Shown here piece by piece: positions 11,093 to 63,271 of a stretch of DNA of 64,000 nt. A model generated the notes under the pieces. That model searched no databases. It had not been told where the DNA came from and saw only the letters and a list, made by a program, of their open reading frames with translations. Source of the stretch: Myxococcota bacterium (lineage in GTDB: Bacteria; Myxococcota; UBA727; JAHDBA01); assembly GCA_020627505.1 (NCBI GenBank), contig JAHDGS010000002.1:4213-68212 (forward strand). The letters run 5' to 3'. Position 1 is the stretch's first letter. Every line of letters begins with the position of its first letter. A program made the position numbers and the translations under genes.

Positions 11093-13589
11093 CTATGCGC
11101 GACGTCGTCGACGCATTATAACAAGGCCTAAAGCAGATAACATCAGTGAGGGGTCTGTTGTTTGACAATCGCATCCACCGCCTGTGACAACTGGACCATC
11201 ACCACCATCTGTTTCAGAAGGTTCGTCATCATCACCATCGTTGCATGTCGAGGCGCTTGAAGAAGGGCTACATCCATCATTTGGGTCGCTGCCGTTAGCG
11301 ACTTCGTCACCATCGTTCACACCATCACCATCAGTGTCAGCGTTATTTGGGTTGGTACCTAGAGCTGCCTCTTGTGCGTCAGTCAAGCCATCATTATCAC
11401 GGTCGTCACCTTCTCCACGACAGGCAGCATTATCGACACTTGGAGAACATGGGTCATTTGGATCGGATTGTCCTTTCACTTCAGTCAGTGAGCCCATCAT
11501 CATCGCTATCACGATCATTTGGATCGGTTCCAAGCTGACGCTCTTCCGCATCTGTTAAACCATCATTATCAGAGTCTTGGTTATCTTGAGAACATGCATT
11601 GGCGTTTGGATTTGGCTCACATGGATTTGTTGGCTCTGTATCATTTGCAATACAGACATTTGCGACCGCTAAATCACCATCACAATAACCGTCATTATCA
11701 GAGTCTGGATTATTCGGATTGGTTCCAGCTGCGATTTCCTCTGCAGCAGTGAGACCATCATTATCCGTATCCTCATCAAGATTCTGTTGGCACGCTGTCG
11801 CATTTGGATCTGGATCACATGGATCTGTTGGACTTGATCCTTGCTCGATTTCAGTCCGGTCATTGAGCGTATCACCATCCGTATCAGCAACCGCAGGGTT
11901 ACTGCCAAGGTTTGCCTCTTGCTCATTTGTGAGTCCGTCACCATCGCGGTCACAGGTTGGTGCATCTTGAGAAGGCACGCATGGATTATTATCATCAGGA
12001 TCTGTCGATGCATCAGACCCATCACGATCATTATCAACAGTTGTTCGATCACAGTTTGGATGTGAGGCATCAGGAATACACGCATTATTTGGTGCACTAT
12101 CTTCATTATCATTCACACCATCACCATCAGAATCAACTGATGTCGGATTACTGTTTTCATTATTTGGATCTGTACCCGCTTCAACTTCTTCGCCATCTGT
12201 GAAGTCATCGCCATCAGAGTCTGGGTTTGTCGGATTTGTTCCAGCATCAGCCTCTTCATCATTTGTTAAACCATCATCATCTTGATCGCATGTTCCTGCA
12301 GTGGCACTCGGTACACACGGGTCATTTGGCGCACTATCTTCATCATCTTCGACACCATCGCCATCACGATCGAGTCCATCAGGCTCATCTGTACATTCTT
12401 GCTCTTCAGGGTCACAGTAACCAGAGTTACAGATGATATCTTCAAGGCAGAAGGCACCATTTTCAAACCGACAATTTGGCAGACATTGGTCTCCACCGAT
12501 AGTCTCTCCTCCACCCGGTCCTTCATCACAACCTTCACCAGGTTGGTGCAGATCATTTGCCGTACCACCAATACACAGAGATTCTGTCAGCGCGGGTCGA
12601 CCACCTCGACATATACCGATCGTACAAACATCACTGTCACAGTCGCGGTCTAAGATACAGTAGTCAGTATCTCGACACTCATTGCAGTTTTCTCCACCAC
12701 AATCCACATCTGTTTCATCTTGGTTGCGAAGTCCATCAGCACAACTCACGTTATCAAAGTCTTCTTCACAGGCTACAGTCGCAAAACTGGCACCAACAGG
12801 TGGGAAGAACTTGTTAAACGTACCAGTATTCACTGTAATCGTGTCAGGGAGTTCCCGAAGCTTATGGCCACCTTCTTTTTCACCGATCAACATATTTAAA
12901 TCACCATTCACAACCAAGCGCGCAACCGGACTGTTTACGACGAGATTTCGACCTCTGGTAAATTCGGCAGCAATCACTTTATCATTGTCTGATTCAACAA
13001 GAATATTTTCTTCTTCAACATTACCAATCAAACGGGAGCGACGTGCGCGAATATCAGATTGACAACCTGCTGATGTCCCAAACTGTTCATAAGGGTCGAA
13101 TATCGCATCACGTCTGACCGAACCCAAGTTTAAGAAACCACCGCGGTTACGGGTTTCTGATAAATCAAAATCAGCACCATTTAAGACATTCGCTCGAAGA
13201 ATTCTTTGCGCTGCATCTGTCGCATTATCACAACAATCTGACTCCATTTGAACGTAAACATAGCCGCCCTGGTTCAAAAACCACGTTAAGGCGACACCTT
13301 CAATTGGCTCAAGTTCTTGATCTGTAAAATAGAGTACCCAATCAAAACCATTCACGGCATCTTGAGAGGTGTGATAAAGCTCAACCTGCCCACCACCAGC
13401 GTCACGCGGAAAATCAAAAAAGAACGTGACATTATGACCATCATTTCTCATTTGCTGTAAAAACTCTGGACGAAAACGAACACCGGTATGATCTTCGTCA
13501 GTGACAACGAGTACTTTAGCAGCTTGTGCAGTATAACTGGCTGATAATAGTGTAAAAATAAGTAAAAGCCGAAAAAACGATCTAGACAT
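11093..13589 (-). pseudogene. Large secreted surface protein with TSP3 (thrombospondin type-3, Asp-rich) repeats and a MYXO-CTERM-like anchor, split by a 1-nt frameshift near 11482
   Basis: An ATG at 13589 with an AGGAG RBS gives the signal peptide MSRSFFRLLLIFTLLSASYTAQA. A roughly 270-aa globular domain and a Cys-rich region follow, then more than 10 DTDGDGLTD-type repeats. The frame ends at 11481. The -1 frame continues the repeat ([15 protein letters not shown]...) and ends with [29 protein letters not shown]. Confidence 0.6.
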
Positions 13590-13729
13590 AGATTGATCTC
13601 CTAATAAGCGGTATGTGTGACAACATACCACATACGGGAGATCTTTCTATATGTTTTTTATCAGATCAAGTACAGATCTTTACAGTATATAATAAAGATA
13701 AACCGACTCAAGCTCTGGGCACAGCCTTT

Positions 13730-22066: not shown

Positions 22067-23788
22067 ATGCAAACAGGGAAAAGTGCATTTCGAGCAGGAT
22101 TGGTCGTACTGAGTGCGTTGGTGATCGGCATATACTTTTTCGTTTCCAGTCGAAACTCCACCATCAACGAACGCAATGCATCCTTGTATTACGCGTTTCT
22201 TGAAAATGCGAGTGGCCTCTCAGCCAAGAGCCTTGTGACCGTCGCGGGCTTACAAGTCGGGATTATTGAAGAAATCAAATTGGTCGAGGTCACACGTGGG
22301 GAGTTTACCAATAACCCAGAAATTGAGCGGGTGAATGACGTCATGCGTGTGGCACGGGTGAATCTACGTATCAATAAAGATGTCACGATTCCTGAAGACT
22401 CTCGGCTGCGAAAAGAGTCTCTCGGCTTACTCGGTTCTCAAGCGCTCTTCCTCGATATCGGAACATCACCTGTCTTTCTTCAAGATGGCGAACGCATCGT
22501 CCGAGTTAAAGGCGTCGGCGGAATGGATGCATTGTTTGGAAAAATGGAGACATTGATCGATCGAATTGACGATAATCTCACCGGTATTGTCGCTGATATC
22601 AAAGGTATTACAGGTCAGTTAAACACAGTTGTCACTGGTGGTGATGGTGGTGATGATTTCGCAAAAGTATATCGTGACGTCATGGCACAACTTCAACAGA
22701 CTGTCGGTTCTATTAAAAGCGCAGTTGAAAGTATTGATGGCTTAGTCGATGAAAATAACGGTACTATTACGGCGCTATTAAACAATATTAACGGCATCAC
22801 AGGTGATATCCGACAGATTACAGAGAATGAAGATGGGCGTGGCGATGTTCAAAATACTGTTCGTGCCATTCGTCAAGTTTCGACTGACTTAGCGCTGATT
22901 ACAGGTAAGATTCGCGACGTCGTCGGTGAAAACGATGGTGAAATCGATCGAAGTATTACAGAGTTTAGACAGACCCTTGCTCGATTGAATCGATCGCTTG
23001 AATCCATTGCCAATATCACAGCAAAGGTTGAACGCGGTGAAGGTGCAGCTGGTAAGTTGCTTGCAGATGAGCGGCTTGGTCAACAACTCGAAAGTGCAAT
23101 TGCTGGCGCATCTGACTATATTACGGATGTCACGTCACTTGAAACACATGTTGATATGGGCGCATACCAATCATTGAAAAGACAGGTCTCAAACGTTTCA
23201 TTTCAATTACGTTTACAACCAGCACCTGATAAATATTACTTCCTTGAAGTCGTCAGCGATCGTGGATACGTCGAAAGCGTCAATCAGACTGGTTACTATA
23301 ATGACCAAAATGCAATCGGTGATGATATCATCGTCAGACGTGAGCGGAGCTACCAAATCGACAATCGCATTCGAATTACGGCAATGTACGCGAAGATTTT
23401 CTACGATTTCCTTGTTGTCCGCGCAGGTATTCTTGAAACAAGTGGTGGTCTTGGGATGGACTTTAAGTTTTTGAATGACCGTATCATTCTTAGAAACGAT
23501 CTATTTAACTTCACCGGCCCACGAGACCTGGCGCTTACAGGTGACCCATTCTATGATGACCGAAACTTTCTTCCGCGTCTTCGAACAATGTTGAAGATTC
23601 AGCCTGTTCCATTCTTTTACCTCAATCTTGGTATCGACGACCCGTTGAACTCAATCAACTTTGCCAACGATCCTAATTTCTACTCGCCTGACCCATTTGT
23701 TGATGGCTATGGACTCGACTATATCTTTGGCGTCGGACTTCGATTTACAGATAGTGACCTCAGAGCAATCCTTCCATTCTTGCCCTAG
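22067..23788 (+). CDS. MlaD/MCE family protein with a long C-terminal helical extension
   Basis: N-terminal TM anchor then an MCE domain (NASGLSAKSLVTVAGLQVGIIEEIKLVEV). About 400 aa of repetitive helical sequence follows. Confidence 0.65.
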   Translation: MQTGKSAFRAGLVVLSALVIGIYFFVSSRNSTINERNASLYYAFLENASGLSAKSLVTVAGLQVGIIEEIKLVEVTRGEFTNNPEIERVNDVMRVARVNLRINKDVTIPEDSRLRKESLGLLGSQALFLDIGTSPVFLQDGERIVRVKGVGGMDALFGKMETLIDRIDDNLTGIVADIKGITGQLNTVVTGGDGGDDFAKVYRDVMAQLQQTVGSIKSAVESIDGLVDENNGTITALLNNINGITGDIRQITENEDGRGDVQNTVRAIRQVSTDLALITGKIRDVVGENDGEIDRSITEFRQTLARLNRSLESIANITAKVERGEGAAGKLLADERLGQQLESAIAGASDYITDVTSLETHVDMGAYQSLKRQVSNVSFQLRLQPAPDKYYFLEVVSDRGYVESVNQTGYYNDQNAIGDDIIVRRERSYQIDNRIRITAMYAKIFYDFLVVRAGILETSGGLGMDFKFLNDRIILRNDLFNFTGPRDLALTGDPFYDDRNFLPRLRTMLKIQPVPFFYLNLGIDDPLNSINFANDPNFYSPDPFVDGYGLDYIFGVGLRFTDSDLRAILPFLP

Positions 23789-23804: not shown

Positions 23805-24083
23805 AAAAAATCCGGCTCAAAGGCCGGATTAAAAGGGAAGTTGTGGAGATCGTTTATCTATCTACTCGGCAGTTTCTCTTCATCAGGGTTTTCGTCATGT
23901 CGGTGAATAAAATTGGTTATTTTTTTTATCCGTCAAATGATCGACAAAAATATATGTATGGTCGAAGTGAAAAATCGAATCTCGTTCGTCTTCTATATTG
24001 TAGGCAGAAAGGTCCTCACGGAAATGATGCCTCCTATATGTGTGTTCTTCTAAAACGTCCTGGTTTTCCAGGCGTTTTTTTTG
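23805..24083 (+). repeat. Copy A of a ~275-bp non-coding repeat family (core only)
   Basis: Near-identical to 51992-52267 and 52418-52696, and to the reverse complement of 45112-45262. Bounded by hairpin atccggcTCAAAggccggat at the 5' end and cctggTTTTccagg plus a T8 run at the 3' end. Confidence 0.85.
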
Positions 24084-24120: not shown

Positions 24121-25035
24121 TTAATGATGTTGTCGCCGTGAGGCAAAAAAGCGATTGAGTTGTGCTTCACATTCATCAGCCAATAAGCCGCTCGTAAACA
24201 TCGTTTGAGATTCCGCCAACCGTTCAAATAAATTCCGATGCAATTTGGTTTGGCGGGTTTGACTTGCGCCAAAGTAAATTTGCAGAATACCTGCGTGCGC
24301 AATCGCGCCAAGACACATCTGGCACGGTTCAAGTGTCGAATATAATACGCAGTCAGAGAGACGCCATCGAGCAAGCTTTTTGCTTGCTTCCGCTATCGCC
24401 AGGCATTCTGCATGCGCCAGGACAGTTTTTTGTTCTTCAACACGATTGAAAGAAATCGATAAGCACGTATCGCCCTGATAAATTGATGCCGCAATTGGAA
24501 TTTCTACTGAATCTTCAGGAATTGCCATACAAAGTTTATGCATACGCGCTCGGTGTTTTGCATGTTCAGCATCGGATAAAAGTTTCTTGGGTTGCCACAT
24601 TGTGAGCTGTTGACGGGCAAGTACATTTAATACGTCGAAGCTTTTTTGTTCTTTCAATGCCAAATCACATTTGCGTATGATCGTCATGACATTTTCATGA
24701 TGCATGTCAGCATAACCATTCTGCTCATCAAGCAACTGGCAATATAGTTCGAATAGAATTGAACGATCGATTGCTGTCACATCGATATGGACTAACACTT
24801 TCGAACGTGATTTTAAGTATAGTCTATACTGCCCCTCATCGTCGTCCAACCAAACGAAATAGCGCCCGCCCTGTTCAAAGAAGAGTGCTACCGCCGATGA
24901 TTCGGGTTCCCGTGTTGTAAGATATAAGTGCACAGGCTCTTTGTCATCGCCACCGAAACTGATCTCCCAGTCTTGCTCAGTCTGGCCAATCACGCGAAGA
25001 CGTTCATAGGCTTTCATTCTGAAACGGGTACCCAC
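24121..25035 (-). CDS. TadA-like tRNA adenosine deaminase domain (C-terminal ~150 aa) fused to an N-terminal ~150-aa domain of unknown function
   Basis: The C-terminal half is collinear with E. coli TadA (HAECLAIAEA ... EPCQMCLGAI ... LADECEAQLNRFFASRRQ). The N-terminal half has no recognisable motif but is in frame with no stops. The start overlaps the upstream ATPase gene by 22 nt. Confidence 0.65.
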   Translation of the reverse strand: MGTRFRMKAYERLRVIGQTEQDWEISFGGDDKEPVHLYLTTREPESSAVALFFEQGGRYFVWLDDDEGQYRLYLKSRSKVLVHIDVTAIDRSILFELYCQLLDEQNGYADMHHENVMTIIRKCDLALKEQKSFDVLNVLARQQLTMWQPKKLLSDAEHAKHRARMHKLCMAIPEDSVEIPIAASIYQGDTCLSISFNRVEEQKTVLAHAECLAIAEASKKLARWRLSDCVLYSTLEPCQMCLGAIAHAGILQIYFGASQTRQTKLHRNLFERLAESQTMFTSGLLADECEAQLNRFFASRRQHH

Positions 25036-32737: not shown

Positions 32738-32970
32738 ATAGAATCTTTTTCTCGATTCTAACATGCTGTTTTTATTGACTTATTTATTTTTTAGGCATTT
32801 TTTTTGCCCCATCTAAGTGAAACATCGGTCATTTGTCGTCTTCTATAGTATAGCGGGGGAAATCTCAGGGGGGATACTGGAAATCCAATGCTCGACTAGC
32901 ATACAAACTCAGTGACGTGACAAGCGCACTGAGTTTTTCTTTTGTGTCTGACTTTTGATAATATTTTGAA

Positions 32971-33609
32971 ATGAAGTCTATCTCTCATGATGAAGACCCA
33001 ATTATGTTGCCACTCCCAAGTTTGGAGATGCCAGAACTTCCACTTTTTGTGCGACAACAAGCTGAACAAATTGATGCGCAACAGGTATTTATCGCGAGTA
33101 TCCGCAATCCTATTTTTAAAACGCCGACTGCATTTGTTTCTGCTTATGTGCTGTTCATCACTTTAAGTATGCAAATTGTAACCATGTGGCCTTTTCTCAA
33201 TCAAGAATTGACGACGCTCAACATTAATGGTGTATCAACACCTTATACATTGAGTGAATATCTCCTTTCATATTTTTTCTGGCTCTTTCTTATACCGACA
33301 ATTATCGCTGGTTTTGTACTGACACAATCAATTAAAAATGCGCTTTGGCGGACAAGCTATTTCGCCTTAACAGGAAACCAAATTTGTATTTTCCGAAAAC
33401 GAAGACTACGTTTTCAAGATTTAGATACTCTTTCAAATATATTGGTTGGAGAAAATTGGATTGAAATATATCTGCGTCCTCAAATTCTTAAAATAACTGA
33501 CCTTGAAGATGTTCCGCTTCTACAGCAATACTTTCAGCGACTAAAGGAGCAAGCCATGCGAGAGAAGAAGAACAAGACACAAAGCTCACGAAGAAAACTT
33601 TCGCTTTAA
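32971..33609 (+). CDS. Membrane protein, function unknown
   Basis: Three hydrophobic helices and a Lys-rich C-terminus. Confidence 0.4.
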   Translation: MKSISHDEDPIMLPLPSLEMPELPLFVRQQAEQIDAQQVFIASIRNPIFKTPTAFVSAYVLFITLSMQIVTMWPFLNQELTTLNINGVSTPYTLSEYLLSYFFWLFLIPTIIAGFVLTQSIKNALWRTSYFALTGNQICIFRKRRLRFQDLDTLSNILVGENWIEIYLRPQILKITDLEDVPLLQQYFQRLKEQAMREKKNKTQSSRRKLSL

Positions 33610-35314: not shown

Positions 35315-36216
35315 TAACCCGGCAAAGCGTTGAAACCATTACTGTGGAGGAATGGTTGTAGAAGTTCAGTAATAAAATACGATGCAATGAACACAGCAAC
35401 CGATGAAAAAACAACAGCATCTGTTGCGGCTTGCCCCACACCACGCGCGCCACCGCGGGCAAAAAAGCCTCTGAAACAACTAAATGTTGAAATCAAGAAA
35501 CCGAAAAACACAGCTTTGATATACCCCTCGATGAAATCAGGCGGGTCTGTCATGCCAAATGATTGTTCAAAGAAAATACCAGGGTCTGTTCCGCTACGAA
35601 TCACAACGATAAAATATGCACCGAGAAAACCCATTCCCGTAAAAATCGACACCAAGACAGGCATCATCACCATTGACGCAATCGTTCTTGGGACAACCAA
35701 ATATTGAATTGGATTCACGGCAAGTGAATCAAGTGCATCAATTTGTTCTGTCACGCGCATGGTACCAAGTTCGGTCGCCATGCCTGAGCCAGAGCGCCCC
35801 GACACCATCAGGCCAGTAAAAACAGGGCCAAGTTCACGGGCCAAAGCGATCAGTGTCGCCGGACCAACCAATGATTCAGCGCTAAAACGCGCAAAAGCGA
35901 CCAAGCTTTGTAGGCCAATAACGAGCCCGGTAAATAGACCTGTTAAGACCACAATAAACAGAGCACCATAACCAATGTCTGCAAGTTGATTTAGTAACAG
36001 GCGAAAACGGAATGGGCCTTTGAACGTCCAATAGAAGACTTGGCGCAAAAACAAGATGTACTCACCAAGTCCTTCGATGAATGATAGCACGGGCTGCCCG
36101 AGCGCTTCGATCAAGCGGACAAATGGCGAGACGGACTTATCAGACATATGCCTGTATTGACTGCATTGAGTCAAAAACACAAGGGGTTGATAGACGATTC
36201 TGTCCATCAACCCCAC
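35314..36216 (-). CDS. mlaE: ABC transporter permease MlaE
   Basis: About 5 TM segments. Conserved MlaE-family segments are present (QIDALDSLAVNPIQYLVVPR, TGMGFLGAYFI). Confidence 0.7.
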   Translation of the reverse strand: MGLMDRIVYQPLVFLTQCSQYRHMSDKSVSPFVRLIEALGQPVLSFIEGLGEYILFLRQVFYWTFKGPFRFRLLLNQLADIGYGALFIVVLTGLFTGLVIGLQSLVAFARFSAESLVGPATLIALARELGPVFTGLMVSGRSGSGMATELGTMRVTEQIDALDSLAVNPIQYLVVPRTIASMVMMPVLVSIFTGMGFLGAYFIVVIRSGTDPGIFFEQSFGMTDPPDFIEGYIKAVFFGFLISTFSCFRGFFARGGARGVGQAATDAVVFSSVAVFIASYFITELLQPFLHSNGFNALPG

Positions 36217-36251: not shown

Positions 36252-36686
36252 TTATGCATTATCAATGCAATATTCTCCAGAACCGTTACTAACCTCTTCA
36301 CAATCCCAAAAAGTTGGGCAATCTGAAAATGAGTCACAAGGTTTAGTACAGTAACCAACAACTGATTCATCTAGGTCATCAAATAAACACAGTGAGGCCT
36401 CGCAATCATCTGATGAACGACAAGGCTCGCCAGTATCATCGGTACTATTATTTTGGTCATCGCCTTCATCTTCACTCGAGCCGTTTTGAGTCGATTCGCT
36501 GTCAGAACCATTATCTGTGTTATCAACGTTATCATTATCATCGGTTCCTGAGTTGGATGAAGAATCATCATCGTTTTCTGTTGTTTCATTATCATCAGAA
36601 GTCGCTGATTCCTCAGAATCACATGCCATAAAGCATGCAACTCCACATAGAAATAGGCATAGCCTACATATATTCATTGTTCTCAT
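36252..36686 (-). CDS. Small secreted acidic lipoprotein with a C-terminal Cys-rich module
   Basis: Lipobox FMAC, a long Asp/Ser/Asn-rich region, then C-x-SDDC-x-LC...GYCTKPC-x-DCPTFWDCEE, similar to the C-terminal module of the 10314-10955 protein. Confidence 0.55.
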   Translation of the reverse strand: MRTMNICRLCLFLCGVACFMACDSEESATSDDNETTENDDDSSSNSGTDDNDNVDNTDNGSDSESTQNGSSEDEGDDQNNSTDDTGEPCRSSDDCEASLCLFDDLDESVVGYCTKPCDSFSDCPTFWDCEEVSNGSGEYCIDNA

Positions 36687-36827
36687 ATATTCTCCTCGGG
36701 TTGATTCCCACTCATAGGTTTCATGAGCCGGTTTTATTCGTCACAAGAGTTAAAATTCGTAGCGTATTATTAGTCGATCCCGAGTGGCACTGTGTTGTTT
36801 ACCGCTGACTTATGTTAAGTCTTATCT

Positions 36828-38412: not shown

Positions 38413-38486
38413 ATGACCTGCCATTTAGTGAATATAAATACTTCTACAGCTATCATTTCTTTGGCGACTTATGTTAATGATGTTAA

Positions 38487-44219: not shown

Positions 44220-44909
44220 ATGTCTAATCAATCACTCAGCCTTTATGGCTCAACCGTTCCGTTTGCCAATACACCTGAATACTATATAGGTCTCGCTCAA
44301 AATGTCGGACTTATTTTGGATAGTCAAGAAGGTGAAACCCTTCAGCAAATCTATGATACCTATGCCGCCAACAATGACGTTTCATGGTGTGATTTCTACA
44401 CAAATGGCTTTGTTCCGGCATACAATGAAAATTTGAGAAACGCTTTAATCCGGCGGGGGCAATCACGTGAAGGTTGCCAAAACCCCCTTGATCAACTTAG
44501 TTGTGAGACAGATTTTGACGCACTCAAACTTAGTGGTGCAGAAGATCTTGCGAGACAGATTTTCGGAGATTATATCGATGACTATAAATCTAAAAATCAA
44601 GGACGCTATTCTCTATATCAAGCAAATTCGATACTGATGGGCGGTGTAGGGACTGTCGCCGCTGCATTTAACATGAATGATATAATTTTGAATGGCCAAT
44701 CAAGTGGGATAGCATCTCAATTTCTCTCCAGTACTTTAGGTCTAGCTAGTCTCTGTGGACTCAGTCTTGCTGCATTCACAGGCTATAAATCATACCAAAT
44801 ACAACAAGGCTATGAGGCTAATGAAGAACTTAAGGTACAGATTGACAATTTTATCGAGTCAATTGCGCAGGGCCAACCCCTTCGTTTTGATGGCTACGAT
44901 ATTGATTAG
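44220..44909 (+). CDS. Hypothetical protein (229 aa)
   Basis: Strong RBS GAAGGAGG 7 nt before the ATG. No recognisable motif. Confidence 0.45.
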   Translation: MSNQSLSLYGSTVPFANTPEYYIGLAQNVGLILDSQEGETLQQIYDTYAANNDVSWCDFYTNGFVPAYNENLRNALIRRGQSREGCQNPLDQLSCETDFDALKLSGAEDLARQIFGDYIDDYKSKNQGRYSLYQANSILMGGVGTVAAAFNMNDIILNGQSSGIASQFLSSTLGLASLCGLSLAAFTGYKSYQIQQGYEANEELKVQIDNFIESIAQGQPLRFDGYDID

Positions 44910-44977
44910 ACTTAGCCCGAAAATATCTTAAATCAATCCGACCAGCAGGTCGGATTTTTAGTGGATAAATCAAGTCC

Positions 44978-45262
44978 CCCACAAAACGAAGCGCCGACCA
45001 AGGCCGGCACTTCTGAACACACATATCGGAGGTCATTTCCTTGAAGGTTATTCCCTCATAGAGAGGTTTCATATCTCCACTATTTTCGTCACGACATGTT
45101 GTGGTTTCACCAAAAAAACGCCTGGCGAACCAGGACGTTTTAGAACACACATATAGGAGGCATCATTTCCGTGAGGACCTTTCTGCCTACATAATAGAAG
45201 ACGAACGATAATTGATTTTTCACTTCGACCATCCATGTTTTTTTATCGGAAAAATGACCGAT
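44978..45262 (-). repeat. Copy B of the repeat family: 5'-truncated core plus extension module, inverted orientation, immediately 3' of ftsK
   Basis: The reverse complement matches 52130-52397 (core 3' half plus extension) and includes both terminal hairpins. Confidence 0.8.
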
Positions 45263-45281: not shown

Positions 45282-48170
45282 TTAGCGAACAAAGATCTCG
45301 CGGTCACCTTTCGCATTCTGTTGGGGCCCAACAATACCTTCCGCTTCAAGTGAATCTACCAGACGCGCCGCTCGATTATAACCGATGCCAAGATGACGTT
45401 GCAGCCATGATGTAGAACACTTTTGATGTTGTCGAATCAAATCAATTGCAGCGCCCCATTTTTCGTCCTGCTCTTTTTCATCATCTTCAGATGCTTCAGG
45501 GACAGGTGGATTGAGGATTTCCATATTATAGTTAGGTGTGCCCTGCTTTTTAAGGTGCTCAACAACCCGATGAATTTCATGCTCTGAAATAAATGCACCG
45601 TGGACACGGGTCACGTTACTTGTCCCAGCAGGCATGATGAGCATGTCACCTTTACCAAGCAACTTCTCTGCACCTGGTCGATTGATGATGGTTTTCGAGT
45701 CATGTGTTGATGCAAGGCGGAAACCCATTCGAACAGGGAAGTTCGCTTTGATCACACCTGTGATGACGTCGACCGAAGGACGCTGGGTTGCAAGCATGAC
45801 ATGGATACCTGCAGCACGCGCTTTTTGAGCGAGGCGCATCACATATCCTTCAACCTCTTTGCCTGCAATCGATAAGAGGTCGGCATACTCATCGATGACA
45901 ATCACAATGAATGGGAGTTTGTCGTACGGTTTTCCATCTGCACCAATCGGTGCTTTACGTTTCGCCGGGTCTTTTCCAGCACGAATTTTTTTGATGACCT
46001 TATTGAATCCGTCAATACTTCGAACACCGATTTCACTCATCGCCAAGTAGCGACGCTCCATCTCTGCAACAGCCCACTGTAAGGCATTGGCTGCTTTCTT
46101 TGAATCAATGATCGGTGGCAAGAGTAGATGCGGAATCCCTTCATATATTGAAAGCTCGAGCATTTTGGGGTCGATCATCATGAACTTGACCTCATCGGGT
46201 TTCGCTCGATATAAGATCGATGTAATCATCCCATTCACACTCACAGATTTACCGGAGCCTGTTGTCCCAGAAATTAGGGCATGTGGCATTTCAGCCAGGT
46301 TGGCGTAGTATGGCTTTCCTTCAATATCCTTGCCGAGTGCCATTAATAACTTATCATCCAACTTAGATTGATATGTCTTATCGGCCATGATCTCTTTTAA
46401 GAACACCGTTTCACGACGCTCATTTGGAATTTCAATCCCAACCGCACCTTTGCCAGGTATTGGGGCAACAATACGAACTTGAACAGCCTCCATTGCCATC
46501 GCAATATCATCAGACAATGACGCTATTTTTGAGAGCTTAATACCAGGTGCTGGGACGAATTCAAATGTTGTGACCACAGGTCCTGGCCGAACTTCTTTAA
46601 CACGTCCTTCGATACCAAAGTCTTTAAATTTACGGACAAGCTTATCTGCCTCGATCTGAAGCTGATGACCATCGATCGGTAATCGATTGGGCGCATCAAA
46701 ATCGAGAAGTTTTAATGGTGGGTAAACATATTTTTTGTCTTTCTGAATCGCACGATCGTCAATATCGATATGCTCGTCAGCACGCTGAACAATTTTGAAA
46801 GCCTCATCTTCTTGTGTTGATGATTCGGTTTTGACAACTGTCTTCGGTTCCGGTGCCACAGCTGCCTCATATTTGGCATTTGCCTTCTTTTGAATACCAC
46901 TCGGCCGTGCTGATTGTGTAATGGCGTCACCATCATCAGATTTTAAATCAACAGGCTCAGAGAGGGCTCGCTGATTCTCAAGAGAGCGTGGCGTACTGCA
47001 CTGCGTGATATTGTTGAGCGTCGGGTCTTTGCTTAAATGTGCTCGGCTGACTTCAGATTTGTCTGAATCATCCCGCGCTGAGGCGGTATGCTCAAAGTCG
47101 AGATCTGGTAAGAAATTTCTTCTCGATGCCGTTTCTTGAACCTCTTCTAAATAAAGCTCATCTTCATCATCTAGAAAATCTTCCCAGGCATTGTTCCCGC
47201 GTCGCGGCATTTGAACAAGGTATGAAAAAGCAGAGCCCATGTGTTTGAATAATGTTCGGATCGACATATTGTAAAAGACCAAAATGCCCGACAAAATTAA
47301 AACAAGACTAAATAGACCCGTCCCGACAACTGCCAAGAGTGGAACAAAGGTTTGATACCACAACGCACCAACCCAACCACCTGCGGCAAAATACTCAACC
47401 TCAGGTGCTCTAAACCCTATTTCAAGCAGTGTTGCTGTACCCCAGACGCCGAGCATGAGGCCCCCAACATGCATGCCATTTGGCCAGGCGAGCGTGGCCC
47501 CCAGAAAGAGTGCCCCCAAATAAAAGAAGAAGAGTGGCATAAGGTAGGATAAATAACCCATAAACTGAGTGAGGCCATCAGCGACAAGGACGCCAATTGG
47601 ACCAACCCAATTGTTGTGGATATGTCCTGAAGTGAGTAAAGAGATACCCTGCGTGCTTTGAACGTCAGGTTGTAGAGATATGACCTGCTCTGGCGCAAAA
47701 GAAATGAGTGCTAAACTGATTAAAACACCGACAAATATCAACATAACACCAAAAATCTCACTTTCGAGACCAACATCTTGTGATATTTTGAGAGTAGAGG
47801 CGCGTCGTTTTGCATGAAAAGCGCGTGGCGTCATTGATTGCTCTTTAGTGGGTTTTGATACCATGGCGTCGACGCGAGAAGGTTCTGGTAGAAATGAAGC
47901 CGGTGCAATCGCTTGTTCGGGTATGGCATCATCTAATTCAATGGGAAGTGCCCGTTTCGTATGCGCCAATCTCAATCTTGGAGAGTTTCGATTTGATGAA
48001 GGTATCTCCGCAGGACGAACACGCGTTGAAGCATTCGCCAAACTTGTTCGTCGTCCAGCCTTTAAAATTGAAGGTACAGCATATCCTTCAACTTGGCTGT
48101 GTTTCGTTTTTGTTTGAACATGCTGTTCTCCGACAGATTTTTTTCGAAATTTAGAAATAAGTGATTTCAA
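45282..48170 (-). CDS. ftsK: DNA translocase FtsK
   Basis: N-terminal TM segments, a Pro/Gln linker, a motor domain with Walker A GTTGSGKS and Walker B DEYADL, and a C-terminal gamma domain (WLQRHLGIGYNRAARLVDSLEAEGIV). Confidence 0.9.
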   Translation of the reverse strand: MKSLISKFRKKSVGEQHVQTKTKHSQVEGYAVPSILKAGRRTSLANASTRVRPAEIPSSNRNSPRLRLAHTKRALPIELDDAIPEQAIAPASFLPEPSRVDAMVSKPTKEQSMTPRAFHAKRRASTLKISQDVGLESEIFGVMLIFVGVLISLALISFAPEQVISLQPDVQSTQGISLLTSGHIHNNWVGPIGVLVADGLTQFMGYLSYLMPLFFFYLGALFLGATLAWPNGMHVGGLMLGVWGTATLLEIGFRAPEVEYFAAGGWVGALWYQTFVPLLAVVGTGLFSLVLILSGILVFYNMSIRTLFKHMGSAFSYLVQMPRRGNNAWEDFLDDEDELYLEEVQETASRRNFLPDLDFEHTASARDDSDKSEVSRAHLSKDPTLNNITQCSTPRSLENQRALSEPVDLKSDDGDAITQSARPSGIQKKANAKYEAAVAPEPKTVVKTESSTQEDEAFKIVQRADEHIDIDDRAIQKDKKYVYPPLKLLDFDAPNRLPIDGHQLQIEADKLVRKFKDFGIEGRVKEVRPGPVVTTFEFVPAPGIKLSKIASLSDDIAMAMEAVQVRIVAPIPGKGAVGIEIPNERRETVFLKEIMADKTYQSKLDDKLLMALGKDIEGKPYYANLAEMPHALISGTTGSGKSVSVNGMITSILYRAKPDEVKFMMIDPKMLELSIYEGIPHLLLPPIIDSKKAANALQWAVAEMERRYLAMSEIGVRSIDGFNKVIKKIRAGKDPAKRKAPIGADGKPYDKLPFIVIVIDEYADLLSIAGKEVEGYVMRLAQKARAAGIHVMLATQRPSVDVITGVIKANFPVRMGFRLASTHDSKTIINRPGAEKLLGKGDMLIMPAGTSNVTRVHGAFISEHEIHRVVEHLKKQGTPNYNMEILNPPVPEASEDDEKEQDEKWGAAIDLIRQHQKCSTSWLQRHLGIGYNRAARLVDSLEAEGIVGPQQNAKGDREIFVR

Positions 48171-50297: not shown

Positions 50298-51947
50298 TTA
50301 GTGTTTTGAGTTGATGGAGTCGCTCAATTGCAAAAAGAACTGCTTCCCTTTTTGAGTCAACGCCTCACCCTCAAGATAGCCATGTGTCCTTAATAATTCC
50401 GAAGTCATATCATGTTCTGATAACCGATGGATAAGCCTTGTGACGACTATACTCGAATCGTGTTTATCATTATCTTCTTCTTGGATCTTGAAAATTGTGT
50501 TGAGTGTTTCTAGTTGTTCTTCACCAAGTTCAAAATAAGATGTATTTTCAATTTCTTTCATAAATGCGTCAGCAAATAGATAACCAATTAAATCCAATCC
50601 ATGCCGTCTCGGGTGAACCATATCATCATGCATCCAACCGCGCTTGGCGAGTTTTTTGATCGCGCCACGTCCGCCCATCGCTTCAAATGTATTCCAATAA
50701 GCACAGCCGAGTTCTAATGACTTTGTCTTGAATAATTGATTGATGGGCTTCAGTTGCTTGCGGGTGATATATCGCGGATTTTGCGATAATGGGTAAATAT
50801 TCTCGATTGGACCAATGATAATGCATTCTGCCCGTGGGAGAATAGAACGAATTTCAGAAATGCGATCTTCAATTCCTTCTTCTATCTTTTTAAGCGTTCT
50901 TTTACCCCAAGCTAAACGCTTAATCTCATTCCCGCCAAGCGAAAATATAATGAGGTCTGAATCAAGGGCTGATAGCTGTTTTCGAACTAGCGCAGGATCT
51001 CTTTTTTCAAAAGTGACAAAGTCCGCGGCTGGTACACCAAATGTATCAACAATGACGCCTGGCTGTTCCATTTCTAATGAAAGTCCATGAACGACGTATC
51101 CACCCTTTCCGGTCAGTTTTACCTTTTCGACGTGTTCAGGAATAGGAATAGAATGCTGACCATGCCCTTTCACCGAATCGATGGTCATCACAAAATCCTG
51201 ACCGACTAATCGAGGTTGATGTGATTCTTCGATATGAATGGACTCAATAAAGGGCCTGATGATTTTTTCTTTTTTCGTGAAGAAGGTCGCTGATGCCGAA
51301 CGGTGCTTTGGGGCGACATGCAATACACCCGCGAGCCCATGCGGGTATTCTCCAAATGAACCCATCGCAATATTGTGGGTCTTAAAGCCGCGCGCATATT
51401 TGCCGGTTCGCGTTCGACGACCATACTCTGCCATCCGATCGGCCAGCATCCATCCACGCCCACCATCACCGAAGTGATGCTGAAATGTGTCACGAATGAC
51501 ATCAATGATATGATCTGAAGCAATCAACGAGTTACCAAAAACCGAAATTCGAAAGTGACGACTCGCATCATAAGTTGAAAATTGCTGCTGTCGCATGTCC
51601 TGCAATCGCGATAGTCTTAATCGACTGTAGGAAAGTGCATCAATGATGCAGTGACCATCAAGTTTTAAATTACACGGTATATCAAGGAATGCAGAAGGCA
51701 TCCTCATCTTTTGCGCAGTTGCTCGCGACCGCTTAACCGGCTTCATCGGAACATATTTGTATGCTTGTGCAAGGATCGGCATACTTGCCTGAAGCTGATT
51801 CAATGCTTTTTCTTCTGGTGTCACTTCTGGAGGAGACACTTTAATCTGGCGATTATCATTTTCAGTGACATCGACTTGATGCTTTTCACCACATGCCAAG
51901 AATATTGTTAGATAAGGTATACATCCTAAATAAATGAGCCCGCGCAT
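50298..51947 (-). CDS. Lipoprotein with a C-terminal SGNH/GDSL-hydrolase-like domain
   Basis: Lipobox LACG. The C-terminal region has a GGNE block and a DDMVHP (D-x-x-H) block typical of the SGNH fold. The assignment is tentative. Confidence 0.4.
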   Translation of the reverse strand: MRGLIYLGCIPYLTIFLACGEKHQVDVTENDNRQIKVSPPEVTPEEKALNQLQASMPILAQAYKYVPMKPVKRSRATAQKMRMPSAFLDIPCNLKLDGHCIIDALSYSRLRLSRLQDMRQQQFSTYDASRHFRISVFGNSLIASDHIIDVIRDTFQHHFGDGGRGWMLADRMAEYGRRTRTGKYARGFKTHNIAMGSFGEYPHGLAGVLHVAPKHRSASATFFTKKEKIIRPFIESIHIEESHQPRLVGQDFVMTIDSVKGHGQHSIPIPEHVEKVKLTGKGGYVVHGLSLEMEQPGVIVDTFGVPAADFVTFEKRDPALVRKQLSALDSDLIIFSLGGNEIKRLAWGKRTLKKIEEGIEDRISEIRSILPRAECIIIGPIENIYPLSQNPRYITRKQLKPINQLFKTKSLELGCAYWNTFEAMGGRGAIKKLAKRGWMHDDMVHPRRHGLDLIGYLFADAFMKEIENTSYFELGEEQLETLNTIFKIQEEDNDKHDSSIVVTRLIHRLSEHDMTSELLRTHGYLEGEALTQKGKQFFLQLSDSINSKH

Positions 51948-51991
51948 GACAGAAGCATAAGTGATTTATGAAATAAGGTGAATCAGAGAAC

Positions 51992-52397
51992 AAAAAAATC
52001 CGGCGCAAAGGCCGGATTAAAAGGGGAAGTTGTTGAGATAGTTTGTCTATCTACTATGCCGTTTCTTGGCATCAGGGTTTTCGTCATATATATGAATAAA
52101 ATTGGGGATCTTATTTATCCGTCAAATGACCGATAAAAAAACATGAATGGTCGAAGTGAAAAATCAAATATCGTTCGTCTTCTATCCTGTAGGCAGAAAA
52201 GTCCTCACGGAAATGATGCCTCCTATATGTGTGTTCTAAAACGTCCTGGTTCGCCAGGCGTTTTTTTGGTGAAACCACAACATGTCGTGACGAAAATAGT
52301 GGAGATATGAAACCTCTCTATGAGGGAATAACCTTCAAGGAAATGACCTCCGATATGTGTGTTCAGAAGTGCCGGCCTTGGTCGGCACTTCGTTTTT
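51992..52397 (+). repeat. Copy C of the repeat family: full core (51992-52267) plus extension module (52268-52397)
   Basis: See copy A. The extension ends in its own 9-bp hairpin (gaagtgccg...cggcacttc) followed by GTTTTT. Its last 60 nt are a diverged duplicate of the core's 3' end. Confidence 0.85.
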
Positions 52398-52417
52398 ATC
52401 ATGTATTTTACTGCCAC

Positions 52418-52696
52418 AAAAAAATCCGGCGCAAAGGCCGGATTAAAAGGGGAAGTTGTTGAGATAGTTAATCTATCTATAAAGAGATTTTTCCACACAA
52501 GTCTTTTCGTCATATATATGAAGAAAATTGGTCATTTTATTTGTCCGTCAAATAACCGATAAAAAATATGAATGGTCGAAGTGAAAAATCGAAGATTGTT
52601 CGTCTTCTATTGTGTAGGCGGAAAAGTCCTCACGGAAATGATGCCTCCGATATGTGTGTTTTTCTAAAACGTCCTGGTTCGCCAGGTTTTTTTTTT
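52418..52696 (+). repeat. Copy D of the repeat family (core only), in tandem with copy C
   Basis: Starts 20 bp after copy C with the same A-run/hairpin atccggcGCAAAGgccggat. Ends with cctggTTCGccagg plus a T10 run. Confidence 0.85.
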
Positions 52697-52720: not shown

Positions 52721-53497
52721 CTAATCCAGCTTGTATTTGACCCCAACTGAAAGCGTTGAGTCTGGGTTCAGACCATCTCCAAGTTCTCCGGCTGCGATAG
52801 CTGTTGAACCTCGAAAGGACAGCGCTGCCGAATCTGACACATCATAATCAACACGCGCAGCAAGCCTAAATACAGCGCCATACGAATCTTCCCCCGGGGC
52901 GATATCTAAATTTTTTAAGACACTAAGTGTCGGTTTTGCTTCGAGATATAATGTTCGACCGCCACCACCGATATATTGAGAGAGCTGAGATACCATGCCA
53001 TCGATATGTAGCCCCACATTCCCTTGACCAAAGGCGACACCTGCACCAAGCGTTGAGGCTGTCTTTTGCCCTCGAATCACACCACCGATATTGATCATAT
53101 TCAAGCCATCATCAAACTCATACGCAATGGAGGGAAGATTCATATCCCAGTAGTCACTCGCAAGAGCGACTCTGAGCTCGGCATGCTCAAGGTTCGTATG
53201 CCCATTAAAATCACTGGCAAATTCAATTCCTGCACGTCCAAGTAACATGTCAGACGTCCCCTCAGAATCATAGTCCTGAATCATGAACGAATATTCACTA
53301 CCAAAAGTCATTTGTGGTGTTCGATCGACTGTAGCCCCTAAGTTGATAGCAACCCCACGCGTATAGCCGCTTAAGTCTCTATTCGGTGGATCTGTCTCTT
53401 CCGTTGCCTCTGAATTTTGTGTCGACTGATTTTCGACAGATATTTCATTTTTCGTTTGAGGGGGAATAATATTCTGAACTCGATTATTAATCTTCAT
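52721..53497 (-). CDS. Hypothetical protein (258 aa), last gene of the ppk1 operon
   Basis: Gly-rich with alternating-hydrophobic segments. No clear signal peptide. Confidence 0.4.
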   Translation of the reverse strand: MKINNRVQNIIPPQTKNEISVENQSTQNSEATEETDPPNRDLSGYTRGVAINLGATVDRTPQMTFGSEYSFMIQDYDSEGTSDMLLGRAGIEFASDFNGHTNLEHAELRVALASDYWDMNLPSIAYEFDDGLNMINIGGVIRGQKTASTLGAGVAFGQGNVGLHIDGMVSQLSQYIGGGGRTLYLEAKPTLSVLKNLDIAPGEDSYGAVFRLAARVDYDVSDSAALSFRGSTAIAAGELGDGLNPDSTLSVGVKYKLD

Positions 53498-57816: not shown

Positions 57817-58710
57817 ATGAAAACAGCAATTGTGACAGGTGCAAACTCAGGCATTGGCTTTGTGACTGCCCGAGAATTACTCAAAGATGGTTATCGTGTT
57901 CTATGCTTATCTCGCAATATGCGTAAACTCGATGCAGCTGTACAAAATCTAGCCACACAAACAGGCTCAAAAGAGTGTCTTGCCATTCGATGTGACCTCG
58001 CCTCATTTAAATCTATTCGAAATGCAGTTCAATCTGTCAAAGACTGTACTGATGAAATCCACTTACATATCAATAATGCTGGTTTAATTTTAAGTGAGCG
58101 ACAGATCACTGAAGATAGTCACGAAGCGACATTTCAGATCAATCATCTGGGTCCATTTCTGTTGACGCAATCTTTACTTCCGCTGATTGAAAAAGCAGCC
58201 GGGGCATCAGGAGATTGTTCACGTATCATTAATGTTTCATCGATCGCACACAAAGCCGGTCTCAAAAATTTTTGGGACTTCAAAGCTGAAAAATCTTATA
58301 AACAGTTTGATGTCTATGGTCGTTCGAAGCTGGCTAATATTCTGTATGCCAAAGCACTCGCGACACGTCTTGACCCGGCGATATGTACCGCGAACGCATT
58401 ACACCCTGGTGTCATCAAGTCTGCATTTGGCGCCGATGGCGATACCAAAGGTCTTTTTGCTTGGGGCGTCAAGTTGATGCCAAAGTTGCCTAACTTTATT
58501 TCTGGCTTGATGACCGTCGAACAAGGTGCCGAAACGACATTATACGTTGCGCGCTCAGAAGAGGGCAGTCAGGTCACCGGGCAATATTTTAAGAACAGCC
58601 GAATTGCAAAACCGAAGACTTTGGGCGACGAAGCGATCGAACGCTTTTATCACTATAGTTTAACGTGCAGCGGCGCACCTGAAATACCTGCTTCATTCTC
58701 TTCTCATTGA
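57817..58710 (+). CDS. SDR family oxidoreductase (retinol-dehydrogenase-like)
   Basis: TGANSGIG Rossmann motif, NNAG, and catalytic Y-x-x-x-K (YGRSK). Confidence 0.8.
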   Translation: MKTAIVTGANSGIGFVTARELLKDGYRVLCLSRNMRKLDAAVQNLATQTGSKECLAIRCDLASFKSIRNAVQSVKDCTDEIHLHINNAGLILSERQITEDSHEATFQINHLGPFLLTQSLLPLIEKAAGASGDCSRIINVSSIAHKAGLKNFWDFKAEKSYKQFDVYGRSKLANILYAKALATRLDPAICTANALHPGVIKSAFGADGDTKGLFAWGVKLMPKLPNFISGLMTVEQGAETTLYVARSEEGSQVTGQYFKNSRIAKPKTLGDEAIERFYHYSLTCSGAPEIPASFSSH

Positions 58711-59984
58711 GTGCTTTCTTTCTTCACATCAGATTTTATCTGTGACAACAAAATCTCAAAAGCATTCTCAGCGGTGGTTACAAACCCCCATGTTTGTCTT
58801 TGGTAATCAAGAGCTCGAGATGCGACTTGGCTTTTGATAGGGTGAACAACAGAATATGACTTGCGCCGAATTGCCTTCATCGACGCTTCCAAACCTGATA
58901 ATTTATACTGTAGTTCAAAAGCATTTTTTCGTAATAGCCCTTGATCAGAAAGTGTCGTGACGACCTCCTTACAGACCGTGAAGATATCCGCCAGCTCGGT
59001 ATCAATGTCATTTACCCCCTGCTGAGTACTCAACTCTTTTAACAACAAGGGTAGGTTCGTAAAATAACCAATTAAACCAGATTTCTGCGCATCATCATCT
59101 AGGATCTCTTCAAGCCGTGACCCTCTATCAGTCAGCGCCTCAACTTTTAAACAATGCTCTTCTATTTCCTCTTGTATCGTTTCACTACCGACCCATGCTT
59201 GGGCTATTTTTTCATACGAATCTTCCCCCGTGCTATCTTGCGTCGACATCTGGAAATGCATATGCTTCCACACCAATCTGGCAGCCTGTAACTGCATATA
59301 TTCATATCCTGGTTCAAGTTCGAGTTTAAGTTGATTATTTAAATCACACACCATCCAGCTGTCGGATGGCGCACTTGGACTGCTCTCAAACAATCTCTCT
59401 GTACGGGTGATTTGAATTTGTAGACGATGGACATCAAAGTATCCGTTCGTCATTTCCTGCCAAAAAGATGCCAAATCCTTCAAGATACTTTGATGTTCAT
59501 CTGCCAAACCATTCTGTGCCAACTTTTCAAGTTGTCTATCAAAATTCGAAATAATCTGCTCAAGCTCTGCAATTGGTTTTGACCGAATAGGGAGAGAATT
59601 TTCAGATTTGAGTATTTCTTGAAATAGATAGTTAATTTGAAGAATTGGTAAGTTCATTTGAACGAGTCTATCTCGTCGTTTTTGAATGATCTCATCAAGC
59701 TTTTCTTCTGGGATGCTTTCATTAGCCGCCAAATACGCATCGATGCTATGCCGGGCTCTTTCTTTGAGCTGTTCTATATTCAGCTTTTCAAGTCCTTCAA
59801 CAAACGCATGATGATCATGAAGCGCATCTAAATAGTCACTTATTTGCGGAGTCATCACCTTATCGAAGCCATAATGAAATTTAATATTTTGAAGATATTG
59901 ACCGAAACCATTAAGCAGTCCACGGCTCCGATTATTTAGCCTGTTGAATATCATAACTCCCCGACATCTTAAGACGAGCATCAA
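58704..59984 (-). CDS. Hypothetical protein (426 aa)
   Basis: Long ORF, mostly helical. No recognisable motif. Confidence 0.4.
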   Translation of the reverse strand: MMLVLRCRGVMIFNRLNNRSRGLLNGFGQYLQNIKFHYGFDKVMTPQISDYLDALHDHHAFVEGLEKLNIEQLKERARHSIDAYLAANESIPEEKLDEIIQKRRDRLVQMNLPILQINYLFQEILKSENSLPIRSKPIAELEQIISNFDRQLEKLAQNGLADEHQSILKDLASFWQEMTNGYFDVHRLQIQITRTERLFESSPSAPSDSWMVCDLNNQLKLELEPGYEYMQLQAARLVWKHMHFQMSTQDSTGEDSYEKIAQAWVGSETIQEEIEEHCLKVEALTDRGSRLEEILDDDAQKSGLIGYFTNLPLLLKELSTQQGVNDIDTELADIFTVCKEVVTTLSDQGLLRKNAFELQYKLSGLEASMKAIRRKSYSVVHPIKSQVASRALDYQRQTWGFVTTAENAFEILLSQIKSDVKKESTQ

Positions 59985-60252
59985 TTGAATTTTCGCTTCA
60001 ATAGCGACTCTACATCTATCTTTATTGGATCCTTGACCGATGCTTTCTTCTACTCAGAACAAGTCTGATGCAAAACATACTCAAAACATCATGATATACC
60101 ACGAAAGCGTCCTTAAGAACTCGAGATACTTATCAAGTATTTATCACCAGAAAAGTGATTTGGCAGCTTCATTATGCGAGACGCTGCTCATCACCTTTCC
60201 GAACTTGGGTAAGACGTCTTTTCAATATATCTTCCAATCGCTTGAACAAGCC

Positions 60253-63046: not shown

Positions 63047-63227
63047 CGAAAACTCCTCGGCTTAGTGGTAACGAATATCATGCTATTTTAAAAGTCATTT
63101 GAACAACAAAGCTACACGATTAACTTACTTACAAAACACATTGGTATGTATGTACGAGGTACATATTTGATTCGCAGATAGCCTGCTCAAGCAGATTTAT
63201 CTTCATCACATACCTGTTCACACAAAT

Positions 63228-63258
63228 AAAAAAGGCACCCGAAGGTGCCTTTTCGTTC
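63228..63258 (-). terminator. Intrinsic terminator downstream of the OmpA-family gene
   Basis: aaaaaaggcacc-cgaa-ggtgccttttcg. On the minus strand the hairpin is followed by a T6 run. The same structure is a bidirectional A-run/hairpin/T-run. Confidence 0.65.
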
Positions 63259-63271
63259 AAGTGCTCAGTAC

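Follow-up and report, generated by a model that had tools for sequence, protein, structure and literature searches.

Terminator-bounded modules in a 64-kb stretch of a Myxococcota genome: a candidate family of small RNA genes

A 64,000-nucleotide (nt) stretch of DNA from a Myxococcota bacterium (contig JAHDGS010000002.1, positions 4,213 to 68,212; hereafter the window, in whose coordinates all positions are given) carries in an intergenic gap near 52 kb a tandemly repeated unit of ~275 bp, which a first-pass annotation had proposed to be a single structured noncoding transcription unit. The feature is real and nonrandom, and was in part misdescribed. The repeat is a mosaic of three kinds of terminator-ended modules, each ~110–130 nt, designated here X (the minus-strand half of the unit), A (its plus-strand half), and B (the spacer between units). 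We consider the chances about even that these modules constitute a genome-specific family of “sibling” trans-acting small RNA (sRNA) genes. Such a family, if real, is best read as new, with no Rfam counterpart and no relative found in the collections searched.

Modular structure of the repeat

When the first unit (51986–52275, +) was compared with the window by blastn, a second unit was found at 52416–52695 (+; 87.3% identity), a third at 23805–24081 (+; 87.8% identity), and a partial fourth copy, comprising the 3′ half alone, at 45104–45249 (−; 96.6% identity). Two further copies outside the tandem pair had been reported at first pass and were indeed present, the total of four resolving into three full copies and one copy of the 3′ half; the tandem repetition likewise held, while the claimed near-identity gave way to units that are 87% identical. 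The pair lies, as described, between two minus-strand open reading frames (ORFs; 50298–51947 and 52721–53497), but the units are not 20 bp apart, with the first extending to 52275 and the second beginning at 52416, and the ~140-bp spacer is itself the structured module B. Each unit consists of two outward-facing halves, X (−) and A (+), joined by a control region with two dyads. The window contains four A, three X, and two B modules, arranged as X1-A1-B1-X2-A2 at 52 kb, as X3-A3 at 23.8 kb, where an MlaD/MCE-like gene and a deaminase-like gene flank the pair, and as A4-B4 on the minus strand at 45 kb, directly after ftsK. Thus, A occurs with X twice at 52 kb and once at 23.8 kb and without X after ftsK, and A-B was copied as a block, a modularity that argues for sRNA genes. 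Among the three full units, homology extends from the outer A-run to the outer T-run, ending exactly at the tails of the outward-facing terminators, which points in the same direction.

A1-B1 (52130–52396) and A4-B4 (45249–44983) form a gapless 267-bp inverted repeat (97.8% identical) that starts exactly at a CCGATAA half-site and ends at the T-run of B. The identity of this block is far above that of the other copies (~87%), and the inverted pair encloses a 6.9-kb segment with ftsK, a beta-lactamase-fold gene, a GDSL-lipase-like gene, and X1. The two copies around ftsK are a potential substrate for inversion of this segment or for gene conversion.

A GC-rich hairpin with a T-run behind it (T5–T10; four T in B4) closes each of the nine modules, and a terminator scan recovered every one of them. 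In X (X1, 51990–52100; X2, 52416–52526; X3, 23805–23914; all −), the plus strand reads as an A-run followed by ATCCGGC-GCAAAG-GCCGGAT, which on the minus strand is an 8-bp stem (AATCCGGC-loop-GCCGGATT) followed by T7, in agreement with the A-run and hairpin originally noted at the opening of each unit (51997–52018 with a U7 tail in X1, 52423–52444 in X2, and 23809–23830 in X3). The U-tail of this hairpin exists on the minus strand only, and homology between units stops at that tail. The A modules (A1, 52143–52267, +; A2, 52568–52696, +; A3, 23954–24082, +; A4, 45112–45258, −) all close with CCTGG-TTCG/TTTT-CCAGG and T7–T10, also as first described (52245–52258 with a U7 tail in A1, 52673–52686 with a U10 tail in A2, 24059–24072 with the loop TTTT in A3, and 45121–45134 in A4). 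B1 (52279–52398, +), which fills the gap between the units, ends in its own 11-bp GC-rich hairpin (52366–52391) and T5, and the terminator of B4 (44983–45100, −), directly behind A4, is at 44988–45013. Within the 861-bp region at 52 kb, five terminator-like sites were found where 0.6 were expected from shuffled sequences; over the 40 kb scanned, such sites were not enriched overall (20 versus 17.6 expected and 25 versus 18.6 expected), and the strongest terminators of these surroundings lie almost all within modules. Variable positions among copies numbered 1/38 in stems, 5/15 in loops, and 53/241 elsewhere (Fisher P = 0.005 and 0.0017), a count that covers three hairpins picked after inspection (the terminator and internal hairpin of X and the terminator of A), so that the P values are indicative only. 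The earlier statement that stems are kept while loops vary is thereby upheld, with one pair broken in the third copy. Together, the excess of terminator-like sites and the conservation of stems argue for sRNA genes.

X comprises a conserved 5′ motif (ATGACGAAAA), an AGATAG-loop-CTATCT hairpin (52036–52052 in X1), a C/U-rich segment (CAACAACUUCCCCUUUUAA), and the intrinsic terminator; RNAalifold applied to the paralogs predicted a hairpin, an unpaired C/U stretch, and the terminator. The C/U stretch CUUCCCCUUUU, between hairpin and terminator, is predicted to be unpaired with a probability of 0.94–0.97 in X1 and X2 (0.97 in X1) and of 0.47 in X3, whose mutated hairpin has lost one AGATAG/CTATCT pair. 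Such accessibility in X1 and X2 is a further argument for sRNA genes. The least conserved stretch of the whole unit (52056–52075) also falls within X. A kinship of X with A/B was considered and rejected, the scores lying inside the range of shuffled sequences, and a 9-mer common to both (TGACGAAAA) occurs at about chance expectation.

For A, RNAalifold predicted a 5′ hairpin (GAAGUGAAAA...UCGUCUUC), a middle hairpin in which AGGCA...UGCCU encloses UCC-UCAC-GGA, and the terminator, which is preceded by the conserved block GGAAAUGAUGCCUCCUAUAUGUGUGUUC. B is a diverged relative of A, with which it shares GGAAAUGA-CCUCCGAUAUGUGUGUUC; a covariance model built from A1–A4 matched B1 and B4 over their full length (35.8 and 34.4 bits, E ∼1e-6), as would be expected of related sRNA genes. 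The best-conserved A/B block, GGAAATGA(TG)CCTCCKATATGTGTGTTC, has six exact sites in the window where none is expected and is predicted to be unpaired with a probability of 0.4–0.7. This block spans a 2-nt indel, and nucleotide identity between A and B is kept across indels of 4, 2, 3, and 2 nt, so conservation is at the nucleotide level and not that of a reading frame. The same model weakly matched 32801–32944, and pairwise tests (z 12.6 for A-B and 4.8 for A-C) as well as nhmmer supported both relationships, the second being with a distant relative of A termed C (32806–32946, +). C has only the 5′ hairpin region in common with A (AAGTGAAA-N13-TCGTCTTCTAT, 32812–32862; nhmmer E 2.9e-4), differs from it in body and terminator, and ends in a terminator of its own (ACTCAGTG...CACTGAGT and a T-run, 32908–32943). 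C is intergenic, with a DUF4258 gene and an orphan gene as its neighbors. Another match to the A model (63171–63267, 15 bits) was judged to be an ordinary gene terminator. Folding of single sequences gave z-scores of −0.6 to −4.8, with B1 at −4.8. For the middle hairpin, the idea that A and B covary in consistent alignment columns was rejected, as the helices are in shifted registers, and a long-range helix closing the 5′ and 3′ ends of A/B is possible, but its variable position does not covary.

The control region between X1 and A1 (52078–52140) contains two dyad symmetries, TTTTCGTCATAT/ATATGAATAAAA (52078–52101) and TTATTTATCCGTCA/TGACCGATAAAAAA (52111–52140), and the same two dyads recur between X2 and A2 (52504–52566, with GTCAAATAACCGATAA at 52547–52562). 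The motif GTCAW-N4-CCGATAA is present on both strands and reads outwards (52121–52136, +; 52130–52115, −), forming a dyad at the X/A junction that argues for divergently oriented sRNA genes; a TTGACG hexamer is found on the minus strand. Exact matches to GTCAW-N4-CCRATAA in the window are confined to A1, A2, A4, and 60022–60037 (−). The half-site of A4 (GTCATTTTTCCGATAA, 45258–45243) begins 24 nt past the ftsK stop codon (45282–45284). The fourth match (GTCAAGGATCCAATAA) lies upstream of an orphan gene (58704–59984, −), where it is followed by the first hairpin of A, GAAGYGAAA...TCGTCTT (GAAGCGAAAA...TCGTCTT; nhmmer E 4.8e-4), in a segment (59971–60037, −) that reaches into the 5′ end of the gene. 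This recurrence fits a promoter plus 5′ leader and is likewise an argument for sRNA genes. We infer a promoter-operator with a 5′ leader in the motif-bearing segment, and a divergent orientation of the X and A units; it looks as if the orphan gene and the modules share a promoter-leader cassette. Candidate promoters of the sigma-28, ECF, and sigma-54 types were judged by eye, and none had the correct spacing in all copies.

Proposed sRNA genes and observations against them

In the proposed arrangement, the locus would be a cluster of small self-contained transcription units, each with a promoter-proximal motif, a structured body of ~100–130 nt, and a Rho-independent terminator whose U-tail would provide a stabilizing 3′ end. 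The 275-bp “repeat” would then be a divergent gene pair, with X transcribed leftwards and A rightwards from putative start sites served by a common ~60-bp control region, in which the two dyad-symmetric sites would probably serve as operators of a dimeric regulator. B would be a diverged duplicate of A in tandem, and read-through of the A terminator may reach it. The RNAs would act by base pairing with mRNAs through their most conserved, largely unpaired segments (CCUCCKAUAUGUGUGUUC in A/B and CAACAACUUCCCCUUUU in X), both of which are complementary to purine-rich sequences of the Shine-Dalgarno type; mRNAs with such sequences would be the presumptive targets. A more far-reaching version, which we regard as doubtful, holds that the modules are portable sRNA cassettes (half-operator, body, and terminator) that duplicate, invert, and recombine as units, forming one regulon of nine or more sRNA genes within 64 kb under a single type of palindromic operator, into which the protein gene at 58704–59984 would have been recruited via the same promoter-leader, in a deep-branching host without a sequenced close relative.

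Several observations weigh against sRNA genes. Consensus sigma-70 promoters numbered zero in a scan of the 52-kb region, where 2.5 were expected. No double compensatory change was seen in any predicted pair among the three to four paralogs, which are too few and too alike for one, although a few one-sided G-U changes occur; on these alignments, the covariation suggested as a check at first pass could not be demonstrated. Folding z-scores of the A copies are modest (−0.6 to −4.1). Pairwise scores compared with shuffled sequences showed no significant similarity of X to A or B. A search of the window for targets with the complement of the seed returned the modules themselves only, and the collections searched (genomes, metagenomes, viruses, plasmids, and proteins) yielded no ortholog. 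In addition, two overlapping ORFs (47–55 and 30–31 amino acids) are open in 4/4 A copies, and many mRNAs of this organism may be leaderless.

Known families, coding potential, and alternative explanations

A scan of the whole window against Rfam 15 gave no match at gathering thresholds, and no homolog was found in the collections searched, in keeping with the first-pass remark that no annotated element matches. The best subthreshold match was to PrrF on the minus strand of X (28.1 and 24.2 bits versus a threshold of 90) and reflected resemblance at the promoter-like 5′ end and at the terminator; a Fur-box reading of this weak match was rejected because the site is not conserved between copies. 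The exact A/B core pattern had no match in 185,579 species genomes or in JGI metagenomes, and a looser A/C hairpin pattern gave nine metagenome matches, all regarded as chance because nhmmer found nothing further in them. Viral contigs contained no relative, and neither did plasmids and phages by blastn. Among related genomes, blastn detected no such element in 80 FtsK-anchored loci with 10-kb flanks, and the 17 closest of these loci gave no match to the covariance model; the loci of the closest FtsK among 5.8 billion proteins (68% identity) lacked the element as well. The possibility of a MITE (miniature inverted-repeat transposable element), raised at first pass, found no support. No significant terminal inverted repeats exist beyond a match of A-run and T-run between unit ends (the end-to-end alignment score was reached by 115/1000, 18/1000, and 859/1000 shuffles for the three units), the 12 nt flanking each of the three full copies share no direct repeat that would represent a target-site duplication, and the unit splits into modules. 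Among the ~50 larger ORFs of the window that were scanned, none encodes a transposase or integrase domain or a RAYT-like/Y1-transposase domain. The ordinary chromosomal context and the lack of a transposase or integrase domain in these ORFs are consistent with sRNA genes. Membership in the REP/BIME family was rejected on account of conserved modules of 110–130 nt with long nonpalindromic bodies, and a type I toxin-antitoxin locus was rejected since the A peptides, besides being charged, are not conserved and X has no extended complementarity to A or B above that of shuffled sequences.

The open frames of A raise the alternative that the A modules are genes for a 30–31-amino acid protein, MVEVKNQISFVFYPVGRKVLTEMMPPICVF(F), made from an mRNA that has no leader or almost none, which we consider improbable. 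In its favor, the ORF that begins with the ATG at 52147 has a conserved start and is uninterrupted in each of the four A copies, a TAA is conserved a few nucleotides before the hairpin, the single indel among A copies is exactly 3 nt, several window genes have a −10-like element 6–9 nt before the ATG and no Shine-Dalgarno sequence, and a gene caller predicted ORFs on A3 and A4, in a frame other than this one. The first-pass statement that ORFs are not conserved because indels shift the frame thus applies to X, whose ORF is broken in X3 by one stop and a 1-nt deletion, and fails for A. Even so, no coding signature was found in the A ORFs. Substitutions among A1–A4 fall by codon position as 5:5:7 and 5:7:5 in the two open frames, hence without the third-position excess of coding sequence, an argument for sRNA genes, and a hand count for the short frame gave ~9 nonsynonymous versus 3 synonymous changes. 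The longer frame passes through the terminator, while the shorter stops just before the hairpin; a reverse-strand frame (55 amino acids, 52111–52278) is also open over A1, and these additional open frames point to a compositional effect. B retains the nucleotide block but not the frame, its equivalent ATG giving a 2-codon ORF. Protein searches with the A ORFs returned two matches only, both gene calls on the same contig (A3 and A4); a profile search of 1.84 billion representatives gave low-complexity matches only, and Pfam gave nothing. The peptide has no transmembrane-like segment and is in this respect unlike a type I toxin. A Shine-Dalgarno-like motif precedes ~18/53 window ORFs; the paucity of such genes, together with leaderless-looking ones, is the reason for keeping the leaderless 30-amino acid peptide, at its low likelihood, among the alternatives. 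The 12-mer GACTTWTGWTAA occurs three times on the plus strand (32950–32961, 36807–36818, and 38466–38477), each time ~10 nt before an ATG (genes at 32971, 36828, and 38487), and the GDSL gene (upstream segment 51948–51996, −) has TTCACC-17-TATGCT just 6 nt before its ATG.

Three further explanations were considered. The modules may together make up a repeated intergenic mosaic comparable to REP/BIME, ERIC, or Correia elements, spread by recombination or mobilization and serving, if anything, for termination or insulation between closely packed genes without regulatory RNAs, a view that we hold to be unlikely. Their positions at gene ends suit it (X3 is 20 nt past the stop of the MlaD/MCE-like gene, A4 ∼24 nt past ftsK, and A2 and A3 24–38 nt from convergent genes), as do their combination as a mosaic, their near monopoly of strong terminators in a compact region otherwise without them, and the A-run on the 5′ side of the A terminator, which could therefore work in both directions. 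A hairpin of ~20–30 nt would suffice for termination, however, yet a body of 100–130 nt is conserved, including unpaired blocks; the 5′ part of A is found again at a protein gene, apparently as its promoter and leader; and the absence of significant terminal inverted repeats, target-site duplications, and, in the ORFs scanned, transposase or RAYT-like domains also speaks against such an element. Neutral remnants of a recent segmental duplication or gene conversion, with no function beyond inherited terminators, appear quite improbable. The 97.8% identity of the A-B blocks, the failure to find a relative outside this genome, and the lack of demonstrable covariation fit such remnants, but copies that differ by 13% keep their stems (1/38 positions variable) while loops and linkers change, block edges coincide with functional-looking signals (half-site and T-runs), and the diverged relatives B, C, and the 60-kb leader keep specific sub-motifs. 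That each unit yields a single plus-strand RNA of ~275 nt, its 5′ end insulated by a reverse-facing terminator, as originally proposed, is very improbable. X and A do stand together in the same order and spacing in the three full copies, and the sRNA part of that proposal is still the most likely reading, given terminator-bounded units, conserved stems with variable loops, and the absence of codon periodicity and of a match to a known family; its single-RNA part conflicts with the divergent orientation of X and A, with the occurrence of A without X but with the promoter-like motif retained, with a dyad motif in mid-unit that faces both ways, with an X hairpin that is U-tailed on the minus strand only and at which homology ends, and with the location of the least conserved stretch inside X.

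Related systems and genomic setting

The nearest analogs of the proposed arrangement are tandem sibling sRNAs such as PrrF1/PrrF2 of Pseudomonas aeruginosa, with the read-through product PrrH, OmrA/OmrB, and AbcR1/AbcR2, and the multicopy csRNA1–5 of Streptococcus (PMC4211561). As in the siblings, homologous units of ~100–150 nt lie head-to-tail in one intergenic region, each with a Rho-independent terminator, and conserved blocks alternate with divergent ones; the short spacing of A and B recalls PrrF1-PrrF2 in that read-through could give a longer composite RNA, as in PrrH. In contrast to these systems, the modules have a divergent partner, X, across a palindromic control region and copies at three loci within 30 kb, and they do not belong to PrrF by sequence or structure, with scores of 28 and 24 bits where the gathering score is 90. 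LhrC1–5 of Listeria and CcsR1–4 of Rhodobacter are multicopy sRNAs with C-rich or anti-Shine-Dalgarno motifs. Like csRNAs, LhrC, and CcsR, the modules comprise several paralogs per genome, some in tandem, with C/U-rich motifs (CCUCC and CUUCCCC) near the 3′ hairpin that could pair with ribosome-binding sites; unlike them, they come from another phylum, score with none of the corresponding Rfam families, and have in A/B a CCUCC that is partly sequestered in a predicted stem.

Mosaic intergenic repeats include the BIME/REP and ERIC sequences of enterobacteria and the Correia elements of Neisseria, some of which terminate transcription or carry promoters; REP sequences as 3′ untranslated region elements are reportedly the subject of a bioRxiv preprint. 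The modules resemble these repeats in being rich in hairpins, strictly intergenic, and variously combined at gene ends. They differ from REP in being much longer, from Correia elements and MITEs in having neither terminal inverted repeats nor target-site duplications, and from all of these in that their hairpins are canonical U-tailed terminators pointing outwards. Type I toxin-antitoxin loci of Escherichia coli include tisB/istR, shoB/ohsC, zor/orz, Sib/Ibs (“QUAD” repeats), and Ldr (“LDR” repeats). These are likewise intergenic, ~150–500 bp long, and composed of two small terminator-bearing units that are sometimes divergent, but the present modules encode no conserved hydrophobic peptide, the ORF of X is broken in one copy, the peptides of A are charged and show no purifying selection, and no extended X-A complementarity was detected.

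The surroundings are ordinary chromosomal DNA with genes for FtsK, YidC, MlaE, PPK, and MutH, in which all but one of the three largest intergenic gaps are filled by modules. X3 follows the MlaD/MCE-like gene (22067–23788), and A3 is convergent with the deaminase-like gene (24121–25035, −). The window has a GC content of 43.8%. Its nearest FtsK relatives are from metagenome-assembled genomes labeled Myxococcota or Deltaproteobacteria, mostly of high GC content, with ≤74% identity in the best segment, and the best FtsK match among the 5.8 billion proteins has 68% identity; the 258-amino acid neighbor of the 52-kb locus (52721–53497) had no homolog in that collection, and many window ORFs have no Pfam or NCBIfam match. 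As far as these comparisons reach, the source is an isolated lineage. The window also encodes, besides MutH, a DUF2780 (VcgC/VcgE) protein. Direct repeats of 69 nt (families D2 and D3; 11330–12371), in and beside a 716-amino acid ORF (11481–13631, −), are bacterial TSP3 repeats (thrombospondin type 3, calcium-binding; PF18884) and thus ordinary coding repeats. Two hairpins outside the modules were noted. One, with a 13-bp stem (GGGGTTGATGGAC...GTCTATCAACCCC) and a weak T-run (36183–36214, −), lies at the 5′ end of an MlaE-like ORF just downstream of the gene 36252–36686 and is the sole strong hairpin at 20–40 kb outside modules. The other (AATCCGACC-AGCA-GGTCGGATT and a T-run, 44925–44960) follows the plus-strand gene 44220–44909 and has a stem resembling that of the X terminator; either the genome may favor one form of terminator, or this hairpin may be the remnant of an X module beside B4.

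The locus illustrates that what appears at first pass as one long structured repeat can conceal several short units on both strands. If the portable-cassette version were true, these modules would give an unusually clear view of an sRNA family being born together with its regulon. Should the modules be transcribed, they would represent a new multimember sRNA family in an almost unexplored lineage. They would then also offer, in compact form, a natural instance of sRNA genes being duplicated, paired divergently around a common operator, and exchanging a promoter-leader with a protein gene.

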